From UHGV virus genome UHGV-1351772: 64,000 nt of DNA, one strand, 5' to 3'. The notes beneath the pieces are model-generated. The model was not told the DNA's origin and did not search any database. It saw only the letters and a list, made by a program, of their open reading frames with translations. Shown piece by piece: positions 2,836 to 62,413 of this stretch. The stretch comes from a virus. Position 1 is the first letter of the stretch, and each line of letters begins with the position of its first letter. The position numbers were made by a program, and so were the translations under genes.

Positions 2836-3379
2836 TTCTGTTACCTCGTACTGTTACTACTACTCGTTCTGTTGTACGTCGCTATACCCCGACGTGTGGG
2901 TTAATGGGACGCGTTGACGTCTGATGAGGCGCAGCAGGCAGTGGCAGCAATGACAGCAAGGGCAGCAATGGTACAAACGCCAACGCGAATAAAAAACGCT
3001 ACTGATCAAATAAAACGACAAGGAAAGTATGAGAAACAAAGACCAGTACCGTCGAGTTAACGCGTAACTCTCAATTCACATTACAGGGTATTCACGTTGC
3101 ACTTAGGGGAAATACCCAGTAATTAAATTCTTGGTGGGAGTAGGTGGGAGGATACCCTCCCACCGTACCACCGTTTCGGCAGTCGTGCTACCAGGACCCT
3201 ACGGCCCTAAACGTAAGTCCGAACTTAATCGGTAGGTGTTTACACGTTTTTAAGGAGCTTTCTACCCGTGAGCAAGAGCAGAAAATATCAGAGCAGGCGT
3301 AACTCAGTTGAAGGCTGACGGGAAAATCTACCCAACATACGTCTGTTCTAATTAGGTTAGTGGGCCGAAGCCCACTGTT

Positions 3380-3616
3380 TTAGCCGTATAGGTAATCAGT
3401 GTAAAGAACCTCCCCCTCAGGATAGTGCGTTGTACCGAGGAGTGTGGCTTCGAGGGTAACCTCTTCCACATCACCATCCGATAACAACTCGCCAGTCCAA
3501 CCTATTTCGGATGGAAGAATTGCACATGCAGCTTCTTCCGTAGGGGCTGCCACAATCATTGCGGAATATTCATCCCAACCAACGTGGTCGGTTCTTTCTA
3601 CTAGATACAAGTTCAT
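3380..3616 (-). CDS. small acidic hypothetical protein; start uncertain (ORF extends to 3640)
   Basis: ORF 3380..3640; internal ATG at 3616 preceded by GGGAG at 7 nt spacing. Confidence 0.3.
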   Translation of the reverse strand: MNLYLVERTDHVGWDEYSAMIVAAPTEEAACAILPSEIGWTGELLSDGDVEEVTLEATLLGTTHYPEGEVLYTDYLYG

Positions 3617-3680
3617 AATTTTCTCCCACAGATAACACATCTCGTTTTCTGTGTTGAGAATGAACTTACTGGCTAAAATC

Positions 3681-3756
3681 TGGCGGGGGTGGGAAGTTTC
3701 GAACTCCCAACCTTCGGTTTTGGAGACCGCTGCACCACCAATTGTGCTACACCCCC
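3681..3756 (-). tRNA. tRNA-Trp: tRNA-Trp (anticodon CCA), 76 nt with encoded CCA end
   Basis: manual cloverleaf fold of the minus-strand sequence GGGGGTGTAGCAC...CACCCCCGCCA: 7-bp acceptor stem, D-stem GCAC/GTGC with G18G19, anticodon loop CU-CCA-AA, T-arm GGGAG-TTCGAAA-CTTCC, discriminator G. Confidence 0.85.
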
Positions 3757-3763
3757 TAATACA

Positions 3764-4264
3764 TCAAAACAGCTTAAGTGTTTGCGTTTGACCACCGCTG
3801 TACAGGTCGTAACGTTTCGCCACTTCCACCGCAGTGGGGGCGTCAACGCCAGCACCTAATGCACCCAGGGCATAGTGAGCACCTGAGCCTATCGCATACG
3901 GCGGCTCTACAAACACGTAACTGGCGTATTTGTTGTCTTTGCACTTCGAGGCGTCGATAACGCGTCCGTCTGTCAAAACAGCAAGTACGATAAAATCAAT
4001 CTGCTCGGGATACGTCGTTTCGAATCTAACTCCACCCCGTTCGATACCGCCGAAACGTTCAAGCGTGAGTTCTTGGCGCACGGATTGCAATGCGGCGACA
4101 TCACCTGCCAAACCGATCGCTTTCACGTCTTCACCCAAAAGCTTCCACGACGTACCCTCAGGCGGCGTGTGAATCTTACGGTATTGCGTGGCAGCACTAC
4201 GTTCTTCCACGGTGACTTGACCGTCGCAAGCTAACGTCTTTCCGTCGAAAACAATCGTGGTCAT
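3764..4264 (-). CDS. HslV/proteasome beta-subunit-like Ntn-hydrolase (putative threonine protease)
   Basis: N-terminus MTTIVFDGK...DGQ resembles HslV (Thr1 after Met removal) and has the GSG motif AIGSGAHYALGA; AGGAA RBS 7 nt upstream of ATG. Confidence 0.7.
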   Translation of the reverse strand: MTTIVFDGKTLACDGQVTVEERSAATQYRKIHTPPEGTSWKLLGEDVKAIGLAGDVAALQSVRQELTLERFGGIERGGVRFETTYPEQIDFIVLAVLTDGRVIDASKCKDNKYASYVFVEPPYAIGSGAHYALGALGAGVDAPTAVEVAKRYDLYSGGQTQTLKLF

Positions 4265-4626
4265 GACAGATTTCCTAACTCATTGCCGACCTCCTGGTCA
4301 GCAGCTACCATCGAATTCGTGCAACGCGTAACATGTTCACGAATCGCTCGAGCCAAACCTTCACGAACGGCTACCAGGAGACACTCTCGATAGCTCGGAT
4401 AATGCGCAATAGGGCTAGGGATGTGTTCCACGCAATAACCATCGTGAACTTCCACCACTACCGTGATGTAAATCTCGACGGGTTGGTAAATCCGCACGCT
4501 CTTGATCAAATCAAGTAACGCTGGCTCCGTGCATCCCCAGTCCTCCGGGGCTTTTAACAGCACTGCCAACTCATCGAGCCTGTACTGAACATCCAATTCC
4601 ACGTTAGTGGTGTTTTTGGAATCCAT
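4261..4626 (-). CDS. hypothetical protein; probable start at internal ATG 4626 (ORF extends to 4710)
   Basis: AGGAG 8 nt upstream of ATG at 4626; stop overlaps the HslV-like start as ATGA. Confidence 0.45.
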   Translation of the reverse strand: MDSKNTTNVELDVQYRLDELAVLLKAPEDWGCTEPALLDLIKSVRIYQPVEIYITVVVEVHDGYCVEHIPSPIAHYPSYRECLLVAVREGLARAIREHVTRCTNSMVAADQEVGNELGNLS

Positions 4627-5518
4627 ATTAAAATCTCCTGTCGTGGTCTGTGTCACACCAACAGGAAATCCTGTAAAAAAATAATTCAGCTGCGTACCGG
4701 CGTTTCTCAACGGGAGTACGCACCCCTCTCGTCTTTGCGAGCCGTCAAGCTAGAGGACATCACACTGCCAGCGCTACCTGGAGCAGGGTCATTCGACGCA
4801 ACGTCGTAATTCGCATTTTGGCCGCACCTCTGGGAGCGTATCCCACCGTCGGCTGCCCGCAGGTAAGTTCTACGGACCTTTCGCCAACGTCGCTCCCAGA
4901 GGCTGCCACGGTTCACTCGGATTTTCTCATGTGGTCCACGCGTCACTGATAGCGCGGGTTCCCCAACACTCGTAAGTCGGGGAACGGTACCGAGCACCTG
5001 AACTCTGGGGATTCCAAAAATCCCTCGGGGTAAGTACGATTCGCAAATCGATTTTCAAACCCCATAGTAAAACAAACTCCAGTGTTAGGCTGAACGTTTT
5101 GTTTTTCCCAGTACACGGCGAAATAAATTCCATGCACTCGAAAAAACAACCCCCAAACCAACACCCGGTCAGGGGGCTTCGAGCTCTGCTGAATCTTCGC
5201 AGACAGAAATCGTGTTTGAGCTGTGAGCAGTAAACTCCTGAACTCCGAAAAATCTTCGTGGTTGGATTTGTAAATCATCCCACGCAAATCCTCCGAACAT
5301 ACCATAGGGTTTTAACGTTCGAAAAAGGGGAATGGGTTTTACCCCCCTCGGTCAGGTGTTCAGGGTAGACCCCCTACCCGATCCCCCAGGTGGGGATTTT
5401 ACCCTGGTGAATTACCCCGGGTTCGATTTTCGGATTTTCTGGAAAATACCGCTCACCGATCCCTACCCCCTCAGGGGGGTCAGACCGAGATCAGATCTCA
5501 TAATAAGGATCGCGCGCG

Positions 5519-5614
5519 TTTTATATATATTTATATATAATATATATTATATATAATAATTATTATATTAATAAATATATTAATATATTTATTTAAATAA
5601 ATAATTAAATAATA
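5519..5614. repeat. 96-nt pure A/T low-complexity tract (possible DNA unwinding element)
   Basis: no G or C from 5519 to 5614; flanked on the left by cgcgcgcg (5511-5518). Confidence 0.8.
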
Positions 5615-5682
5615 CCTAAAGGTATTATTATTTTGATCCTAAAGGAATAATATATTTATAAATAAATATATTATACTATACG

Positions 5683-5700
5683 CGCGTGCGTACGCACGCG
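5683..5700. repeat. 18-bp perfect palindrome cgcgtgcgtacgcacgcg (alternating purine-pyrimidine)
   Basis: sequence equals its own reverse complement; sits at the right edge of the AT-rich tract. Confidence 0.85.
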
Positions 5701-5758
5701 TATAAGGAAGAGATCTTGAGATCAGATTTTTGAGAGAGTTAAAAATTTAAGATCGATC

Positions 5759-5779
5759 CGAGAGACTTAGTGTCTCTCG
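5759..5779. repeat. inverted repeat/hairpin cgagagac-ttagt-gtctctcg
   Basis: 8-bp perfect arms with 5-nt spacer. Confidence 0.7.
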
Positions 5780-5835
5780 AAGAGTATTAAAAAATTTAAA
5801 AGATCAAAAAACCAAAGCTAGAGAACTACTCAACC

Positions 5836-5862
5836 TGAATCTTCAGTGTGTGAAGATTCAGT
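5836..5862. repeat. inverted repeat/hairpin ctgaatcttca-gtgtg-tgaagattcag
   Basis: 11-bp perfect arms with 5-nt spacer. Confidence 0.75.
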
Positions 5863-6331
5863 AAGTTGATCAATCCAGCTGATCCGCTAGTACGCGAAGC
5901 GTGAATGTTTTTTTGATCGTCGCGGCGGCCGGTCCGCCGACCCGAGGGTGGGGTGGAACTGGTCGAGGGGAATGCCCCTCAGGCGCTCTCAATCGCGCTG
6001 TAACGAGTTAAACGGGGTTCTGGTACCCAAGTGTACCCCTTGAGGAGATTTTTGCGTCAAAATGCGTTCTAGAGCGTTTTACGATGGGGTGGGTTTTCGA
6101 CCCACTCAGGGATAGGGGTTGGCGTGACAGCTCGAACGACAAAATCGTGGTTTCATGGCGTTGAGTGAAAATAAATTCAAAACCCACAACCAAAAACACC
6201 CTCAAATTCTTCGTAGGAAGCTCTCTGACGAGATAAACGTGGGTAAGGGGTACGAACGTACCGCCTGGAAAGAAAAATGCGTTAGAATCGCTCTCAGCGC
6301 GTTTTTGATTTTTGGGCAAAAAAATAAAACG

Positions 6332-6351
6332 GGGGAGACTTCGGTCTCCCC
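6332..6351 (-). terminator. intrinsic terminator-like hairpin downstream of the 6362..7486 gene
   Basis: ggggagac-ttcg-gtctcccc (UUCG tetraloop) with A-run on plus strand upstream, i.e. T-run after the hairpin on the minus strand. Confidence 0.5.
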
Positions 6352-6361
6352 AGAATATTTT

Positions 6362-7486
6362 TTACAGAGTCGTCAGTTCTTTTGACGGATAGTACAGTTT
6401 CACATCGACCAAACTGTAACCGGTGGCGTAGAACACCTGATTTCCGACCGAAGCAATAAACCCTTCAGGGTCGATAACGTCAACCGAGAAATCGGAATCG
6501 AATAGCCAGGTTTCTTGTTCCCCTTCCCGTTCGAAAACGGCAGCGTAACGCCCGTATTCTGGGCCTCGGCGGAAACGAAACAGCGTTAATCCTGTCTCAC
6601 GTTCTAAGCCATAAATCACCCCATTTTCTTCGTAGATTTCAGCGCGATTACAGCGTGTAACCGTCAACAACGCAGGCCGTTGTGTCGGGATTGTTTTAAA
6701 CGGTGAAGGCCCATCGTATGTCGTTGAAACCCAATCACCGAGACTGTCTAACGCCAGTGCTCGATACGCGATAGGTGACTTGTAGTTACACAACCTGTTG
6801 CCCTCGGTGTACATCGTGTATTCGATGCGTAACGTAGTACCGATGATGTCGTTCAAACTCAGTTTGTAGTGCGCTAACTGGGCTTGTATACGACAGGACA
6901 GAATTGTACACAGGAAAGTGTGACCCTCTGTAGAACGGCACACAACTCCGTAATCGGTCACTGCCAGTAACGTGGCATCTGTTTTACGGACGGGTTCCAG
7001 GCGAAACACCTCATTTTCAGTTTCTACGAGGAACTGCGAAACCGCTTGGTTTCTGGATTTAGCTTTAATCGTATCGAACACATCACCCGCTTTTACGATT
7101 AACGGTTCTACCACGTTTACCTGAAACGGCAGCGGTTTAGTTGGGTATTGTCCCAACGTTGTAATCGTTACTGAGTTGAGTTCTGGGTCCGATGCGTCAG
7201 GATCACCAGACAACCAATACGTTAGCCATTTCGACAACGTCTGGGGAATGACGCGCGTGGTGTAAAACAGAATTTCGCCATGTAAACCTGCCTCTGCCAA
7301 TTCGCGTGCAAGAAACGAGTTGACCGCGTCGTAGGTACCGTTGCGCAAGATGTCCATACCCCCGACACGAACCAAATCACAAATTACGCCGTGTGGAAGA
7401 ACCCACATTTTGACGTTTTGATTTCGGTCGATGGTACCTTCGCGCAGCATTCTGTGCCAAACGGGTTTACGTAAGTAATTTCTCAT
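6362..7486 (-). CDS. hypothetical protein (374 aa)
   Basis: six-frame ORF; TAAAGGAG-type RBS context upstream of ATG. Confidence 0.6.
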   Translation of the reverse strand: MRNYLRKPVWHRMLREGTIDRNQNVKMWVLPHGVICDLVRVGGMDILRNGTYDAVNSFLARELAEAGLHGEILFYTTRVIPQTLSKWLTYWLSGDPDASDPELNSVTITTLGQYPTKPLPFQVNVVEPLIVKAGDVFDTIKAKSRNQAVSQFLVETENEVFRLEPVRKTDATLLAVTDYGVVCRSTEGHTFLCTILSCRIQAQLAHYKLSLNDIIGTTLRIEYTMYTEGNRLCNYKSPIAYRALALDSLGDWVSTTYDGPSPFKTIPTQRPALLTVTRCNRAEIYEENGVIYGLERETGLTLFRFRRGPEYGRYAAVFEREGEQETWLFDSDFSVDVIDPEGFIASVGNQVFYATGYSLVDVKLYYPSKELTTL

Positions 7487-7559
7487 TTTAAAACTCCTTT
7501 AGGTAGAATAAGACTCTCACTAGGATAATATCTATCCGTAATTATTTCGAGGTTCACTA

Positions 7560-8992: not shown

Positions 8993-9232
8993 TCAATGGG
9001 GCCCTGACATTACCACGAGGTGTATAGAGTAGACCATATTTAGCGCATAGGTAGCTGACGAACCTGCTACCATCAGACCAAATACTGCAAATGCCTGTAC
9101 ATACCGTGTTTTTCGTAGTGGGAAACCTTGCGAACGTCCGTATTGTTTTATCGCTTGGTAACTCTCGCGGATCATTTTATACGTCGCTATCCACGAAAAG
9201 AACACAAGTAAATAGTAAATTGGAGCCATCAC
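8993..9232 (-). CDS. small putative membrane protein (79 aa, two hydrophobic helices)
   Basis: ORF overlaps the terminase stop by ATGA; two hydrophobic segments. Confidence 0.45.
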   Translation of the reverse strand: MMAPIYYLLVFFSWIATYKMIRESYQAIKQYGRSQGFPLRKTRYVQAFAVFGLMVAGSSATYALNMVYSIHLVVMSGPH

Positions 9233-11337
9233 TTCATCCTCTGGCGTTGGATAAGCTCTCTTAAGCTTTCCATTGACGCCACGTTTTGTGTATCAGTGTT
9301 AAGTTGAGCAATGAGGGACTGGAGACGGTTACGAGCAGCCATTGCTTGAACCGGGTCTAATAACCCGTTTGTGGTTCGCACAAGACGCTCAATTTCCCCC
9401 ATCAGTTCCTGCTGTCGCGCCTCCTCCTCGAGTTGTAATTCCTCATCCACCCCTTCACGATTTTCGACTAAATTACGATTGCGCATCATCAATCGACTGT
9501 TGTTGATTTCATAATGCCCCAGGTTATTCCCAAGCAGCAATAACCACATCGCAAGTAACCAAGAAATCACGAGGTCGTCATGACCTGAAGCTTTGTGGTC
9601 AATACGACCATTTTTCTCCACGAGGTTAAGTATCTGGTCGATGAGTTCTCCGCAACGGAGTTTATCCGCGGATAAGCGCAACGCTGTGGTGAATACCTCA
9701 CCGTACAGTTTACGACGTTTTTCCTGGTCGGTTGAGAAACCGATATATTTACGGAATTTATTCCAGAACTTCTCAGCGTTACCAATAGGTCCACGGTGAT
9801 ACTCTTTGTAGAGATCGTCCGTACGTGAGTAGTCCTGAGTGATTCTCACAAATAAACGGCGATGTAAGTCCGTGACGCGAGACTGTAACTGCAGGATAAT
9901 TGCATCAGCCACAGACGAGCCAGTAGACCGTCGTTCCAGGATTAGTACCGTGTTAGGATATCGCACCATAAAATCCGCTAAATGAATCGCGAAAGAGATA
10001 ACGTTAGATTCGTTAACGGTTAATTTACCTGCATACTCTGCGGTCACAGAGTTAACAATAGACATGGCGATCGCGTCTCGACCCACCGCCTCAGAGGTAT
10101 CCAACCCGATGACGTGTCGGTCTTTGAGCTTCGTCATCATCTCCTCTTCGGTGTAGTACCAGTCGGTAACGTAGTTTTGTGGTGAAATATCTTTAAACAC
10201 AGCACGCATACGGGAAGCATTCATACGATCTGCATCTTCCGCTGAGAACGGCTTGTTCAGACCACCGGTAGTCCATTCACCCCCGAAGTCACGACGGATC
10301 TGGTCAGGGGTACCTTTGGCGTTCGCAATCATTGCCGCTAACTGCTCATCGCTGGTACCGAGCTGACGGTGGTTGTACTTCACGTAGAACATGATACGTG
10401 GGACTTCTGCCGTGGAGTTAGAACGGATGATATCAATGAGCTGTTTACGGGTTGGAATGTCGATATAGCGCTCATCCCACATAATCCCCGACGTCATCAG
10501 CTCGTACATGTACTTGCCTTCTTCCGTCGCTAAGTCACCAGGGGTTGTTGCGAATACGTTACCGTAAGGAACACCTTCCGCTTCGTTAATACGGCGAGCC
10601 GCTGTACCGGATGCCAGGGCTGCCGGTAGAATGTGGTGTACGTTTTTGGTAAAGGGGCCTTCGTCCGAGAACAGACGACCAGCGGTGAGTCCACGACCGA
10701 TACCGTTAGCAGATTCTGGGTCGTTTTGGCCGATACCCGTAATCAGTTTGTTACCCTGGGCTAAACACGCAAAAGTTTCGCGGTTATCTGGATCATCTGG
10801 ATGTGCTGGCCACAAGTAAGACGGTAGACCGTTACGTAGTTGCTTAAGTTTGTTAATGGTTTCTTCACGCAGTGCCGGTCCTTTTGTGATAAGAATCGTA
10901 CGAGAGTTTTCCAGAAACCGAATTAACCACAATAGTAATCCGCTCATCCCGACGGTTTTACCATGCTGACGGAGGAACTCGACGGCGGCGTCGATGTTGT
11001 TGAAGAAAATCCAATACATCGAAAAGTTACCACGGTCGATACGGAACGGCGACCCGTATTTCATACCGTCCGCAGGTACCCTGACGCACTCTCGAAACCA
11101 GTACCAAGGGTTTTCAGCACACTCGATGGCGATATACGCTTTCTGCTCGTCCGTTAGGTTTTCGTCAAAAGGATCGACCCCTTGCAGTAAAGGGTTATGT
11201 AAGGCGAGATGAATATAGTAGTGCTTTACACCCAGCTTTTTTAGGATATTTGCAAACTTGATAAACGATTTGTTTGTGGTTTTATCGTCAACAATAGCGC
11301 CTGGATAATAACGCCAGTCCGATTCACGTAGTATCAT
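9229..11337 (-). CDS. terL: terminase large subunit (T4 gp17-type ATPase/nuclease)
   Basis: Walker A-like RQHGKT; C-terminal nuclease motif ASGHDDLVISWLL matching the T4 gp17 GYHDDLVMS pattern; GAGGAG RBS. Confidence 0.85.
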   Translation of the reverse strand: MILRESDWRYYPGAIVDDKTTNKSFIKFANILKKLGVKHYYIHLALHNPLLQGVDPFDENLTDEQKAYIAIECAENPWYWFRECVRVPADGMKYGSPFRIDRGNFSMYWIFFNNIDAAVEFLRQHGKTVGMSGLLLWLIRFLENSRTILITKGPALREETINKLKQLRNGLPSYLWPAHPDDPDNRETFACLAQGNKLITGIGQNDPESANGIGRGLTAGRLFSDEGPFTKNVHHILPAALASGTAARRINEAEGVPYGNVFATTPGDLATEEGKYMYELMTSGIMWDERYIDIPTRKQLIDIIRSNSTAEVPRIMFYVKYNHRQLGTSDEQLAAMIANAKGTPDQIRRDFGGEWTTGGLNKPFSAEDADRMNASRMRAVFKDISPQNYVTDWYYTEEEMMTKLKDRHVIGLDTSEAVGRDAIAMSIVNSVTAEYAGKLTVNESNVISFAIHLADFMVRYPNTVLILERRSTGSSVADAIILQLQSRVTDLHRRLFVRITQDYSRTDDLYKEYHRGPIGNAEKFWNKFRKYIGFSTDQEKRRKLYGEVFTTALRLSADKLRCGELIDQILNLVEKNGRIDHKASGHDDLVISWLLAMWLLLLGNNLGHYEINNSRLMMRNRNLVENREGVDEELQLEEEARQQELMGEIERLVRTTNGLLDPVQAMAARNRLQSLIAQLNTDTQNVASMESLRELIQRQRMK

Positions 11338-19477: not shown

Positions 19478-19504
19478 TACCTACCTCCGTCAAGGAGGTA
19501 GGTA
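19478..19504. terminator. bidirectional intrinsic terminator
   Basis: tacctacctcc-gtcaa-ggaggtaggta 11-bp perfect stem, A8 upstream, TTTTATTTTT downstream. Confidence 0.6.
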
Positions 19505-22259: not shown

Positions 22260-22365
22260 CTTTAATACTCCTTTAGGTTAAACAGTCGAATAGCGTGTAA
22301 TTCTACAACGCTCACCTAAGTAAAATATATCTAAGATAATTTTCAATAGGGTTAAAATAAAGGTG

Positions 22366-43159: not shown

Positions 43160-43185
43160 TACCTACCTCCGAAAGGAGGTAGGTA
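43160..43185. terminator. bidirectional intrinsic terminator
   Basis: tacctacctcc-gaaa-ggaggtaggta; the 11-bp stem is identical to the one at 19478; A-run upstream, T-rich downstream. Confidence 0.6.
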
Positions 43186-61708: not shown

Positions 61709-61744
61709 TTTAATAACTCCAATGGTGTTACACCTGGATAATAT

Positions 61745-62413
61745 CTATCTAAGAATATTTTTAGCGAAAAAAGGATCGACTGTAAACTCCCTCACCTGTG
61801 AGTCATAACCCGAATGTATCTGATCGCTACTGAGCAAATACCCGTCTAAATCGTGTGGAAGAATCCAAGAATCGCCTTGTTTAAAAATACCATAATCTGT
61901 TGTTCCAGAGGAAAAAACGATTTCCTCTGGAGACGAATAGATGTGGCGTAAGGCAAGATCTGACGGCTTTAACACGATTAATCGAACGGGATGTTGACTG
62001 ACTGCCTCTTTAATAAACTGTTCACGATTAAACCAAATTATTTTTTCGGGGTAAGTTTCGAATTCAGCCCATGTCCGCGTGATAACTAATTTGGAAATCT
62101 TTCTCAATTCTTCAGAATGCTCTGCGTAGCCGATACACTCCTTGCGCACTTCATGATTTTCTACCGATGCTGTGAATTTTTGGAATAGGTGTTGTTGGAA
62201 AAAGCCGTTCTCCGGGATATCACAACCCGCGTTGTATAGTGCAATGATCTCCCACAACAACGAAAGAGAAAACACAAATGCTAACTTTTCCACAACTTCC
62301 CAATCTTCGGAGTAAGGGGCTTTAAAGCCCCAATACTGCCGTGCGTTATACATAAAGTGAGTTTGTAAAAACCGAGGGGCTTTTGACAAGACCTCACTAT
62401 AAACGATCAGCAT
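61745..62413 (-). CDS. hypothetical protein (222 aa)
   Basis: six-frame ORF. Confidence 0.5.
   Translation of the reverse strand: MLIVYSEVLSKAPRFLQTHFMYNARQYWGFKAPYSEDWEVVEKLAFVFSLSLLWEIIALYNAGCDIPENGFFQQHLFQKFTASVENHEVRKECIGYAEHSEELRKISKLVITRTWAEFETYPEKIIWFNREQFIKEAVSQHPVRLIVLKPSDLALRHIYSSPEEIVFSSGTTDYGIFKQGDSWILPHDLDGYLLSSDQIHSGYDSQVREFTVDPFFAKNILR

Follow-up and report, generated by a model that had tools for sequence, protein, structure and literature searches.

A conserved A/T-rich module as candidate core of a lytic replication origin in SPN3US-like jumbo phages

The viral genome UHGV-1351772 was analyzed as a stretch of 64,000 nucleotides (the window), which contains 96 nt without any G or C at positions 5519-5614. 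Based on the neighboring genes, the window belongs to an SPN3US-like, phiKZ-related jumbo phage. The reading that we favor, at roughly even confidence, is that this A/T tract would be the unwinding core of a lytic replication origin, which itself would lie within about 2.1 kb of non-coding control DNA. A DNA unwinding element had also been suggested in the original prediction, which was made from the window sequence alone. The support gained for it is indirect throughout, i.e., it comes from the instability of the duplex, the conservation as a single copy, the link between a GATC cluster and phage-encoded Dam, and a switch of the synonymous-site skew at the locus.

The A/T tract and the module around it

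Reading the window directly confirmed the elements on which the original prediction was founded. These are the pure A/T tract itself, the (CG)4 element immediately to its left (gatcgcgcgcg, 5508-5518), and an 18-bp perfect palindrome to its right (cgcgtgcgtacgcacgcg, 5683-5700), which is identical to its own reverse complement. The GC content of the window is 46.3%, and only two A/T runs of at least 18 nt are present, the tract and a 30-nt run next to it; by chance, about 3e-22 runs of 96 nt would be expected. The palindrome is situated inside a perfect pyrimidine-purine (Py-Pu) alternation of 28 nt (TATACGCGCGTGCGTACGCACGCGTATA), which is twice as long as any other alternating tract in the window. 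With 14 dinucleotides, this tract has the sequence characteristics of Z-DNA (CG/TG/CA-rich alternation of at least about 12 bp), and given the surrounding alternation the palindrome as such is only mildly improbable (P about 0.05). The duplex-destabilization profile that had been proposed as a check was calculated with nearest-neighbor energies. The A/T tract turned out to be an extreme minimum, with the lowest stability of all 100-bp segments (z = 8.1, runner-up region 3.7), and the minima for segments of 50, 100, and 150 bp were all found at the tract (z = 6.9-8.6, next 3.7). The tract thus has the low duplex stability of a replication origin with an unwinding element, and the longest Z-prone tract adjoins the least stable duplex of the window. 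Chance does not explain the tract together with its flanking elements. The parts of the module and further features of the region are listed in Table 1.

Table 1. Features of the module, the non-coding hub, and neighboring genes (positions in the window)
Feature	Position	Strand	Remarks
tRNA-Trp	3681-3756	-	
HslV-like peptidase	3764-4264	-	
Conserved structured RNA candidate, ~550 nt	4681-5229	-	left side of the hub
14 GATC (Dam) sites	5380-5918	.	clustered about the module
Outer left dyad GAGATC-a-GATCTC	5487-5499	.	two GATC sites
Left boundary ATAAGGATC and (CG)4	5503-5518	.	self-complementary GC-rich 'clamp' beside the A/T tract
96-nt pure A/T tract	5519-5614	.	candidate DNA unwinding element
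Central A/T-rich dyad AATAATACC-TAAA-GGTATTATT	5608-5629	.	candidate dimeric-protein site or small hairpin
GATCCTAAAGGA with dyad TCCTnnAGGA	5635-5646	.	kept as AAAAGATCCTG(G/T)AGGA in six SPN3US-like lineages
Second pure A/T run, 30 nt	5646-5675	.	same in L001, L004, L006
28-nt Py-Pu tract including the 18-bp palindrome	5677-5704	.	right GC-rich clamp; predicted cruciform/Z-DNA potential
Right boundary ATAAGGA (direct repeat of 5503-5509), then GAGATC at 5710 and 5718	5702-5727	.	
Two AGAG(A/T)(G/A)TTAAAAATT repeats	5733-5796	.	around hairpin C-GAGAGAC-TTAGT-GTCTCTC-G (5759-5779)
Conserved hairpin CTGAATCTTC-AGTGTGT-GAAGATTCAG	5835-5861	.	aligned SPN3US counterpart AACCGACA-CACACT-GTCGGTT
Mini-hairpin ACGC-GAA-GCGT	5892-5902	.	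contains GCGAAGC; SPN3US counterpart GCAC-GAA-GTGC at the same position
Intrinsic-terminator-like hairpin and T-run	6320-6363	-	terminates the upstream 374-aa gene; right edge of the non-coding hub
Large terminase	9229-11337	-	

The nearest complete relative of the phage is a circular record of 222,441 bp, which is filed as an Enterobacter ludwigii plasmid (NZ_CP134650.1, our entries L001 and L018-L022; 80% DNA identity; the Enterobacter record in the following). IMG/VR contigs have 99% and 89% protein identity in the gene adjacent to the module, and the phages SPN3US, phiEaH2, Asesino, Caitlin, SPAsTU, and the SNUABM phages are farther off (48-62%). The tract is situated inside about 2.1 kb of non-coding DNA (about 4265-6362, the hub), which is unusual, as about 88% of the genome is coding. 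The open reading frames (ORFs) in the hub have frames that are broken between close relatives or are conserved far less than HslV (46% versus 99%), and annotators placed no coding sequence across the hub in the Enterobacter record or in SPN3US. Therefore, the hub is regarded as non-coding, in agreement with the original prediction.

The module has the layout GC-rich element, A/T arm, small A/T-rich dyad, A/T arm, and GC-rich inverted repeat. It was found once per genome in three complete genomes and also in eight further relatives, i.e., in 11 lineages, and its architecture is kept across Seoulvirus, Erskinevirus, Machinavirus, and Miamivirus. The locus is thus single-copy and conserved in relatives, as is expected for a replication origin, and the possibility that it is absent from close relatives, raised together with the original prediction, did not hold. 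A misassembled junction had also been considered; the tract is no such artifact, since it was present in independent assemblies, namely the closed 222-kb record, the IMG/VR contigs, SPN3US, and other GenBank phages. In the aligned close relatives the flanks and the ends of the tract are identical, and its middle varies, with total lengths of 96 nt in the window, 128 nt in the closed record, and 51 nt and 119 nt in the IMG/VR contigs. The exact length is uncertain for each assembly, because several contigs and records break inside the tract. The 20-nt core of the alternating tract has up to 7 differences between phages with a 99% identical 374-aa protein; all of them are transitions, and thus the alternation is preserved. 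The 18-mers of L001 and L006 are exact inversions of each other.

In more distant relatives the order is outer GATC dyad, TAATAAGGATC(A)CGCGCG, A/T arm, one or two small A/T-rich dyads, second A/T arm, GATCCTnnAGGA, GC-rich inverted repeat, and TATAAGGAA. The outer left dyad is kept as GATCnCGATCTC in SPN3US, phiEaH2, and Asesino, and TAATAAGGATC(A)CGCGCG is kept across the Seoulvirus and Erskinevirus relatives. The small dyads vary by compensatory substitution, and their symmetry is kept (ATACC/GGTAT, ATATC/GATAT, ATCCC/GGGAT). The central dyad is the same in SPN3US, and compensatory variants are present in phiEaH2 and Asesino (ATATC-TAAA-GATAT), in SPAsTU, SNUABM29, and Caitlin (ATATCCC-TAC-GGGATAT), and in Miami (ATAATAC-TAC-GTATTAT). 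A homologous module was found in the Klebsiella phage Miami and its relatives (BUCTxx100, KPN8, and others), where alternating tracts of 33 nt and 15 nt surround about 150 nt of A/T with the Miami dyad. Within the right GC element there is always an inverted repeat with arms of 5-9 bp and differing sequence. This repeat was significant against plain shuffles in eight of nine lineages (P 0.0005-0.03), but only marginal against shuffles that preserve the Py/Pu pattern (P 0.05-0.46). In Machinavirus (e.g., Caitlin and SNUABM9) the GC-rich inverted repeat is kept and the strict alternation is gone, so that the GC-rich dyad symmetry is better conserved than the Z-DNA potential. The description of the flanks as Z-DNA-prone CG repeats is therefore true of this phage, but it does not denote a conserved property.

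Three complete genomes from two clades, assembled from fetched pieces, were used for genome-wide comparisons: the Enterobacter record, SPN3US, and BUCTxx100. In each of them the module was the sole extreme outlier for A/T runs, A/T content, and alternating tracts, and it also contained the longest alternating tracts. The longest A/T runs at the module were 128 nt and 30 nt in the Enterobacter record, 54 nt and 35 nt in SPN3US, and 61 nt, 45 nt, and 21 nt in BUCTxx100, compared to maximally 19 nt, 21 nt, and 24 nt, respectively, elsewhere. The highest A/T content in 200 nt was found at the module in the Enterobacter record (93%, next 70%) and in BUCTxx100 (82%, next elsewhere 72%). In both clades the module is situated past the sheath, terminase, and p458 block, and it heads a block of over 100 kb in which nearly all genes are transcribed the same way. 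Its internal polarity is also equal in both clades. The terminase/p458 side is syntenic in Miami (tblastn), only the far side differs, and in BUCTxx100 the module is situated in a classic divergent intergenic region. The distance to the large terminase gene ranges from 3.5 kb (window) to 8 kb (BUCTxx100), with unrelated genes in between. The flanks of the module are able to pair, and GAGATCAGAT at 5487-5496 recurs exactly at 5718-5727, on both sides of a 231-nt core. These are also traits of transposons, but a mobile element or miniature transposon was rejected, because each genome has only a single copy of the module, and its position is syntenic in two clades.

Several observations concern the ends of deposited sequences and further searches. 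Two metagenome contigs (ends of L005 and L007) and at least four deposited genomes (MN445185, OK428535, MT799840, and LC768500) have an end within the A/T tract or at its border. Apparently, assemblies tend to be interrupted at this place, and tract lengths in databases are therefore unreliable. That records start at the module because of physical ends was rejected, since this start is a convention inherited from SPN3US; where records and contigs end at the tract, this reflects convention or an assembly drop-out and is no evidence for physical termini. Scanning metagenome_contigs and genome_contigs with the 16-nt pattern AATAAGGATCN{0,1}CGCGCG, which is too short, yielded only chance matches, none of them beside an A/T block, and longer patterns retrieved only already known relatives from viral_contigs. 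A 13-kb viral contig (L012) contains the exact 20-nt dyad ATAATACCTAAAGGTATTAT (1427-1446) beside a 49-nt A/T run. It was rejected as a relative, because with a GC content of 38.6% and no GC clamps it looks unrelated; the shared dyad could be chance or a distant echo.

Skew switch, GATC cluster, and the proposed origin

Because skew tracks gene orientation, cumulative GC skew of the whole sequence was not used alone. The skew at third codon positions (GC3 and AT3 for G-C and A-T skew) was determined in each gene's own sense. The module divided each genome into two halves, and genes were sorted by half and strand. In the Enterobacter record, the GC3 skew of plus-strand genes was +0.028 in half A (98 genes) and -0.081 in half B (84 genes), whereas it was -0.092 (9 genes) and +0.027 (21 genes), respectively, for minus-strand genes. 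Genes that are co-oriented with forks leaving the module thus have a skew of +0.03, and head-on genes of -0.08 to -0.09. Such a crossing pattern is predicted by diverging forks and not by an effect of gene class or transcription.

In a fixed test, the module was set in advance as origin and its antipode as terminus, and the interaction of strand and half was analyzed. The GC3 interaction was significant in the Enterobacter record (t = 5.22, p = 4e-7) and in SPN3US (t = 3.91, p = 1e-4), and it had the same sign in BUCTxx100 (t = 1.31, p = 0.19). The AT3 interaction had the opposite sign in all three genomes (p = 0.019, 0.008, and 0.038, respectively), and the four-fold GC values were p = 6e-4, 0.006, and 0.14. 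The main effects of strand and half were mostly small, the largest being that of strand on A-T skew in the Enterobacter record (t = 2.6). A change of skew sign as expected at a replication origin was thus found, and its polarity at the module is G+T-rich along fork movement. A G+T-rich leading strand is the polarity usually seen at origins.

In addition, a free scan for two breakpoints was performed, with 300 permutations per genome as control; the number of permutations with a fit at least as good as the observed one is given in parentheses. In the Enterobacter record the 'origin' switch was placed at 86-90 kb (module at 87.1-87.3 kb) and the 'terminus' at 186-190 kb (0/300). For SPN3US the respective values were 0-6 kb (module at 0.06-0.24 kb) and about 116 kb, with the antipode at 120 kb (26/300). 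BUCTxx100 had a broad optimum at 196-198 kb that includes the module (190.9-191.1 kb), and the 'terminus' at 132 kb (52/300). The distances between the switch and the module were 2.8, 5.9, and 5.0 kb, and the second switch was roughly opposite in two of the three genomes. Both the G-C and the A-T skew of synonymous sites reverse their sign no farther than 3-6 kb from the module.

The module is also characterized by a cluster of GATC sites, 14 of which are present at 5380-5918, in comparison to 3 per kb over the window. The Enterobacter record and SPN3US both encode Dam, as does phiEaH2. In these two complete genomes the region within 250 nt on either side of the module contains 13 sites (expected 1.5, Poisson P = 9e-9) and 10 sites (expected 1.4, P = 2e-6), respectively, and it has the highest count in 500 nt (12 and 10, next 6 in both). 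No Dam gene was found in BUCTxx100, and its module region has a single site (expected 4.2). Both a GATC cluster and an available Dam, as they characterize a Dam-regulated cis element, are thus present by sequence in the Dam-encoding lineages, and the cluster looks like a lineage-specific methylation layer on an older module. The genome-wide GATC density is 2.0 per kb in the two Dam-encoding genomes (2.07 in the Enterobacter record and 2.03 in SPN3US) versus 5.8 per kb (5.79) in BUCTxx100, so that GATC seems to be avoided outside the module where the phage has Dam.

If the module is an origin, a phage-encoded initiator would bind the conserved dyads in and beside the A/T block (AATAATACC-N4-GGTATTATT, TCCTnnAGGA, and the GAGATC repeats). 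The 96 nt of A/T, where the duplex is far weaker than elsewhere in the region, would then melt, and the GC-rich inverted repeats on either side would confine the bubble. In this phage the self-complementary Py-Pu repeats may absorb superhelical stress as cruciform or Z-DNA. Two diverging forks would be established by the phage DnaB-like helicase and the family-B polymerase; a DnaB-like helicase is indeed encoded, and the gene for PolB is about 10 kb away from the module. In Dam-encoding lineages the dense GATC cluster could couple firing to the methylation state. Short candidate initiator motifs are GAGATC (four copies), TCCTnnAGGA, the central dyad, and AGAGnnTTAAAAATT (two copies).

Several known systems can be compared with the module. 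The lambda ori consists of iterons, an A/T-rich block, and a palindrome, and E. coli oriC and P1 oriR have an A/T-rich unwinding element with clustered GATC sites. The module shares with them a unique, easily melted A/T block beside a GC-containing palindrome and short repeats or dyads, the dense GATC sites in Dam-encoding lineages (14 in 540 bp), and the skew switch at the locus. In contrast to them, DnaA boxes, 13-mers, an IHF site, and an obvious array of 18-19-bp iterons are missing, the tract exceeds theirs by far in length and purity (96-128 nt without G/C), GC-rich alternating repeats are situated on both sides, and the module would act inside a phage-built nucleus. The lytic origins of herpesviruses and baculoviruses and the mitochondrial control region combine several parts in 1-2 kb of non-coding DNA, among them a palindromic, A/T-rich core, and they have non-coding transcripts next to them. 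The multi-part layout of the module resembles them, as an analogy only and without sequence relationship. The 28-nt Py-Pu tract with the 18-bp palindrome abutting pure A/T is also similar to C-type cruciforms and Z-DNA 'flipons', in the kind of setting that is known to favor the extrusion of cruciforms via a large bubble. However, these are structural classes and not functions, and Machinavirus has lost the strict alternation but kept the dyad symmetry.

Weighing of alternative roles

Several points weigh against the proposed origin. The skew signal is modest, the free scan was significant in one genome only, and the fixed GC3 test was not significant in BUCTxx100. An unmodelled confounder tied to genome layout or to expression class may still play a part, because the gene order on the terminase side is common to all three genomes. 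Neither an initiator protein nor a clear iteron array was found, and the candidate sites are short. Replication that is mostly driven by recombination might leave little trace of a single origin. Lastly, the GATC cluster, the phage Dam, and a terminase gene at a distance of 3.5-8 kb in two clades also fit a packaging (pac) site of the P1 type.

At such a pac site, the terminase would recognize the GATC repeats around a flexible A/T spacer for the first headful cut, gated by Dam as in P1. The P1 pac contains seven GATC-containing hexamers, its cutting is Dam-dependent, and P1 encodes its own Dam. Headful packaging, a phage-encoded Dam, and GATC sites on either side of a central region are shared features, and the GAGATCAGAT repeats that border the core and the several records and contigs that end at the tract also fit packaging. 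However, the module has no TGATCA/G hexamer array, it is outside any terminase gene, with two unrelated genes between it and TerL, and it persists without GATC sites in the Dam-less Miami-like clade. The record ends are scattered inside or beside the tract and are elsewhere in most records, breaks in extreme A/T are expected from coverage drop-out, the spacer length is not conserved (51-128 nt), and a pac site does not predict a skew switch at the locus. We therefore regard this function as unlikely. A transcription hub is also improbable, though a little less so. In this case the A/T block and dyads would be promoters or upstream elements for phage RNA polymerases, serving the structured RNA and the HslV-tRNA unit toward one side and p458 toward the other, and the GC hairpins would terminate or insulate transcription where the late structural block meets the long unidirectional one. 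This role is in line with the location of the module, which heads the co-directional block of more than 100 kb, with the divergent intergenic region in BUCTxx100, and with the structured RNA about 260 nt away. One arm of the central dyad also resembles ATAGATATTAT, a promoter-like motif from which it deviates at one position in phiEaH2 and at two in the window. Yet neither promoter-like consensus (AGATATATATTAC or ATAGATATTATCT) is present in the module, where the sole near-matches lack the G, and each genome has many copies of these motifs but a single module. In addition, the terminators of these phages are hairpins followed by a T-run, unlike the palindrome, and a promoter leaves 96-128 nt of pure A/T, the GATC-Dam link, and the skew switch unexplained. 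The roles as origin and in transcription are not mutually exclusive, as origins often contain promoters.

A purely structural element, i.e., a supercoil sink, a topological boundary, or a recombination hotspot that is kept for its non-B-DNA potential, is quite improbable. It would account for the longest Z-prone tract being next to the least stable duplex, and Z-DNA and bubbles are reported to interact under torsion (PMC8053131). The palindrome core varies among near-identical phages, including the exact 18-mer inversion between L001 and L006, as would result from hairpin template switching, and the phage encodes an SbcD-like nuclease. Such an element leaves the sequence conservation of the dyads and boundary motifs unexplained, as well as the GATC-Dam link and the polarity with which the skew switches, and the strict Py-Pu alternation is missing in Machinavirus. 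The original prediction had also named host nucleoid proteins (H-NS, IHF, DnaA) as possible ligands, and long A/T tracts do bind H-NS in vitro. This part was not borne out: the IHF consensus WATCAANNNNTTR, the DnaA box TTWTNCACA, and the oriC 13-mer are all absent from 5200-6400. The phage DNA is moreover enclosed by a phage-built protein shell that is described as strictly excluding host defense proteins (PMC12908238); that the shell also shuts out host DNA-binding proteins such as IHF and DnaA is our own extension of this description. A host protein target is thus very improbable, and the absence of host-type origin motifs fits replication inside the phage nucleus.

Neighboring features and meaning of the candidate origin

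On the left side of the hub, about 260 nt away from the module, an unannotated candidate structured RNA is encoded (Table 1), which is conserved on the nucleotide level across genera and has indels that are not multiples of three. RNAalifold analysis of six sequences yielded 117 pairs, 40 of which had compensatory double changes, in comparison to 17 in shuffles and 5-11 when the partners were slid by 1-3 columns. Of the cells, 91% were paired versus 83% in shuffles (0/500 reached the observed value), and the strand was fixed by the many G-U pairs. The RNA was found with nhmmer in every SPN3US-like relative, it was not detected in the Miami-like clade by nhmmer and motif search, and it had no match to an Rfam covariance model; an Rfam search of 3000-7000 at E <= 1 yielded only tRNA-Trp. 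The structured RNA possibly acts together with the module, but it may also be independent of it. The right flank (5704-6330) is also conserved non-coding DNA and contains several hairpins with stems that covary across genera; the stems of the hairpin at 5759-5779, e.g., covary in SPN3US and phiEaH2, and GAGTATTAAAATTT occurs also in Miami. RNAalifold support was weak for this flank, and thus its elements may be DNA-level or protein-binding elements. Read on the minus strand, its shared blocks are GGAATTTATTTT, TTTTTTAACC, AAAACGCTCTAGAA, and GGTACACTTGGGT.

The neighboring genes of the window include, in addition to those in Table 1, genes for a phiKZ gp28-like protein and the tail sheath. The 374-aa and 458-aa neighbor proteins had no match in sequence searches of Pfam, NCBIfam, and PDB, PHROGs yielded only families of unknown function for the neighboring genes, and the AlphaFold prediction for the 458-aa protein, made from a single sequence, was of too low quality to be used (pLDDT, the predicted local distance difference test, of 35). 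A small ORF with its own Shine-Dalgarno motif and ATG is situated between the structured RNA and HslV (4265 to about 4590, minus strand). It is 46% identical to its counterpart in the Enterobacter record, compared to 99% for HslV, it is missing from SPN3US and phiEaH2, and a different gene is present at this place in SPAsTU and SNUABM29. The Enterobacter record, a circular, non-mobilizable 222-kb 'plasmid' of an E. ludwigii isolate from a gull, encodes terminase, sheath, PolB, DnaB, and Dam and is a complete chimallivirus genome, which suggests a carrier state or contamination and not a plasmid.

Several signals recur throughout the genomes. Two promoter-like motifs were found about 40-70 nt upstream of genes and always on the coding strand, (C)AGATATATATTAC seven times in the Enterobacter record, and (G)ATAGATATTAT(CT) nine times in SPN3US and seven times in the Enterobacter record. 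Sites in the window are 22320-22332, 7525-7535, and 61738-61748, all on the minus strand, and the two motifs probably represent two promoter classes of phage RNA polymerases. A ribosome-binding-site context, ACCTAAAGGAG(T), is present just upstream of start codons at 7496-7503 (minus strand), 22270, 48383, and 60430 (minus strand) in the window, and at 12 sites in the Enterobacter record. Its octamer CCTAAAGG occurs twice in the module on the opposite strand (5615 and 5638), which is probably a coincidence. Near-identical intergenic hairpins, TACCTACCTCC...GGAGGTAGGTA, are situated at 2072-2082, 19478-19504, and 43160-43185 and are likely shared intrinsic terminators. The variant in the Enterobacter record is TACCCTACTCC...GGAGTAGGGTA, followed by CTTTTATTTTTT, and this genome-wide terminator tail also fits the terminator at the right edge of the hub.

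Two reviews on jumbo and nucleus-forming phages (PMC12908238, PMC13282480) name no replication origin or packaging signal, and full-text literature searches for an origin or a pac site of these phages retrieved none. The module would have an origin architecture without earlier description, and as far as could be found it is the first candidate cis-element for replication in nucleus-forming phages. The more far-reaching proposal is held tentatively, at somewhat less than even confidence: the module would be the first cis-acting origin of the nucleus-forming jumbo phages (Chimalliviridae), host-independent, with a GC-clamped A/T block, gated by Dam in some lineages, and situated beside a so far undescribed structured RNA of about 550 nt that would possibly act as primer, organizer, or regulator.

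Taken together, one sharply defined, conserved candidate locus renders the start of DNA synthesis in the phage nucleus amenable to testing. The correlation between GATC sites and Dam hints at an epigenetic control layer, and the neighboring structured RNA is a separate lead. The module could also serve for replicon building or for the engineering of these phages, which resist DNA-targeting tools.

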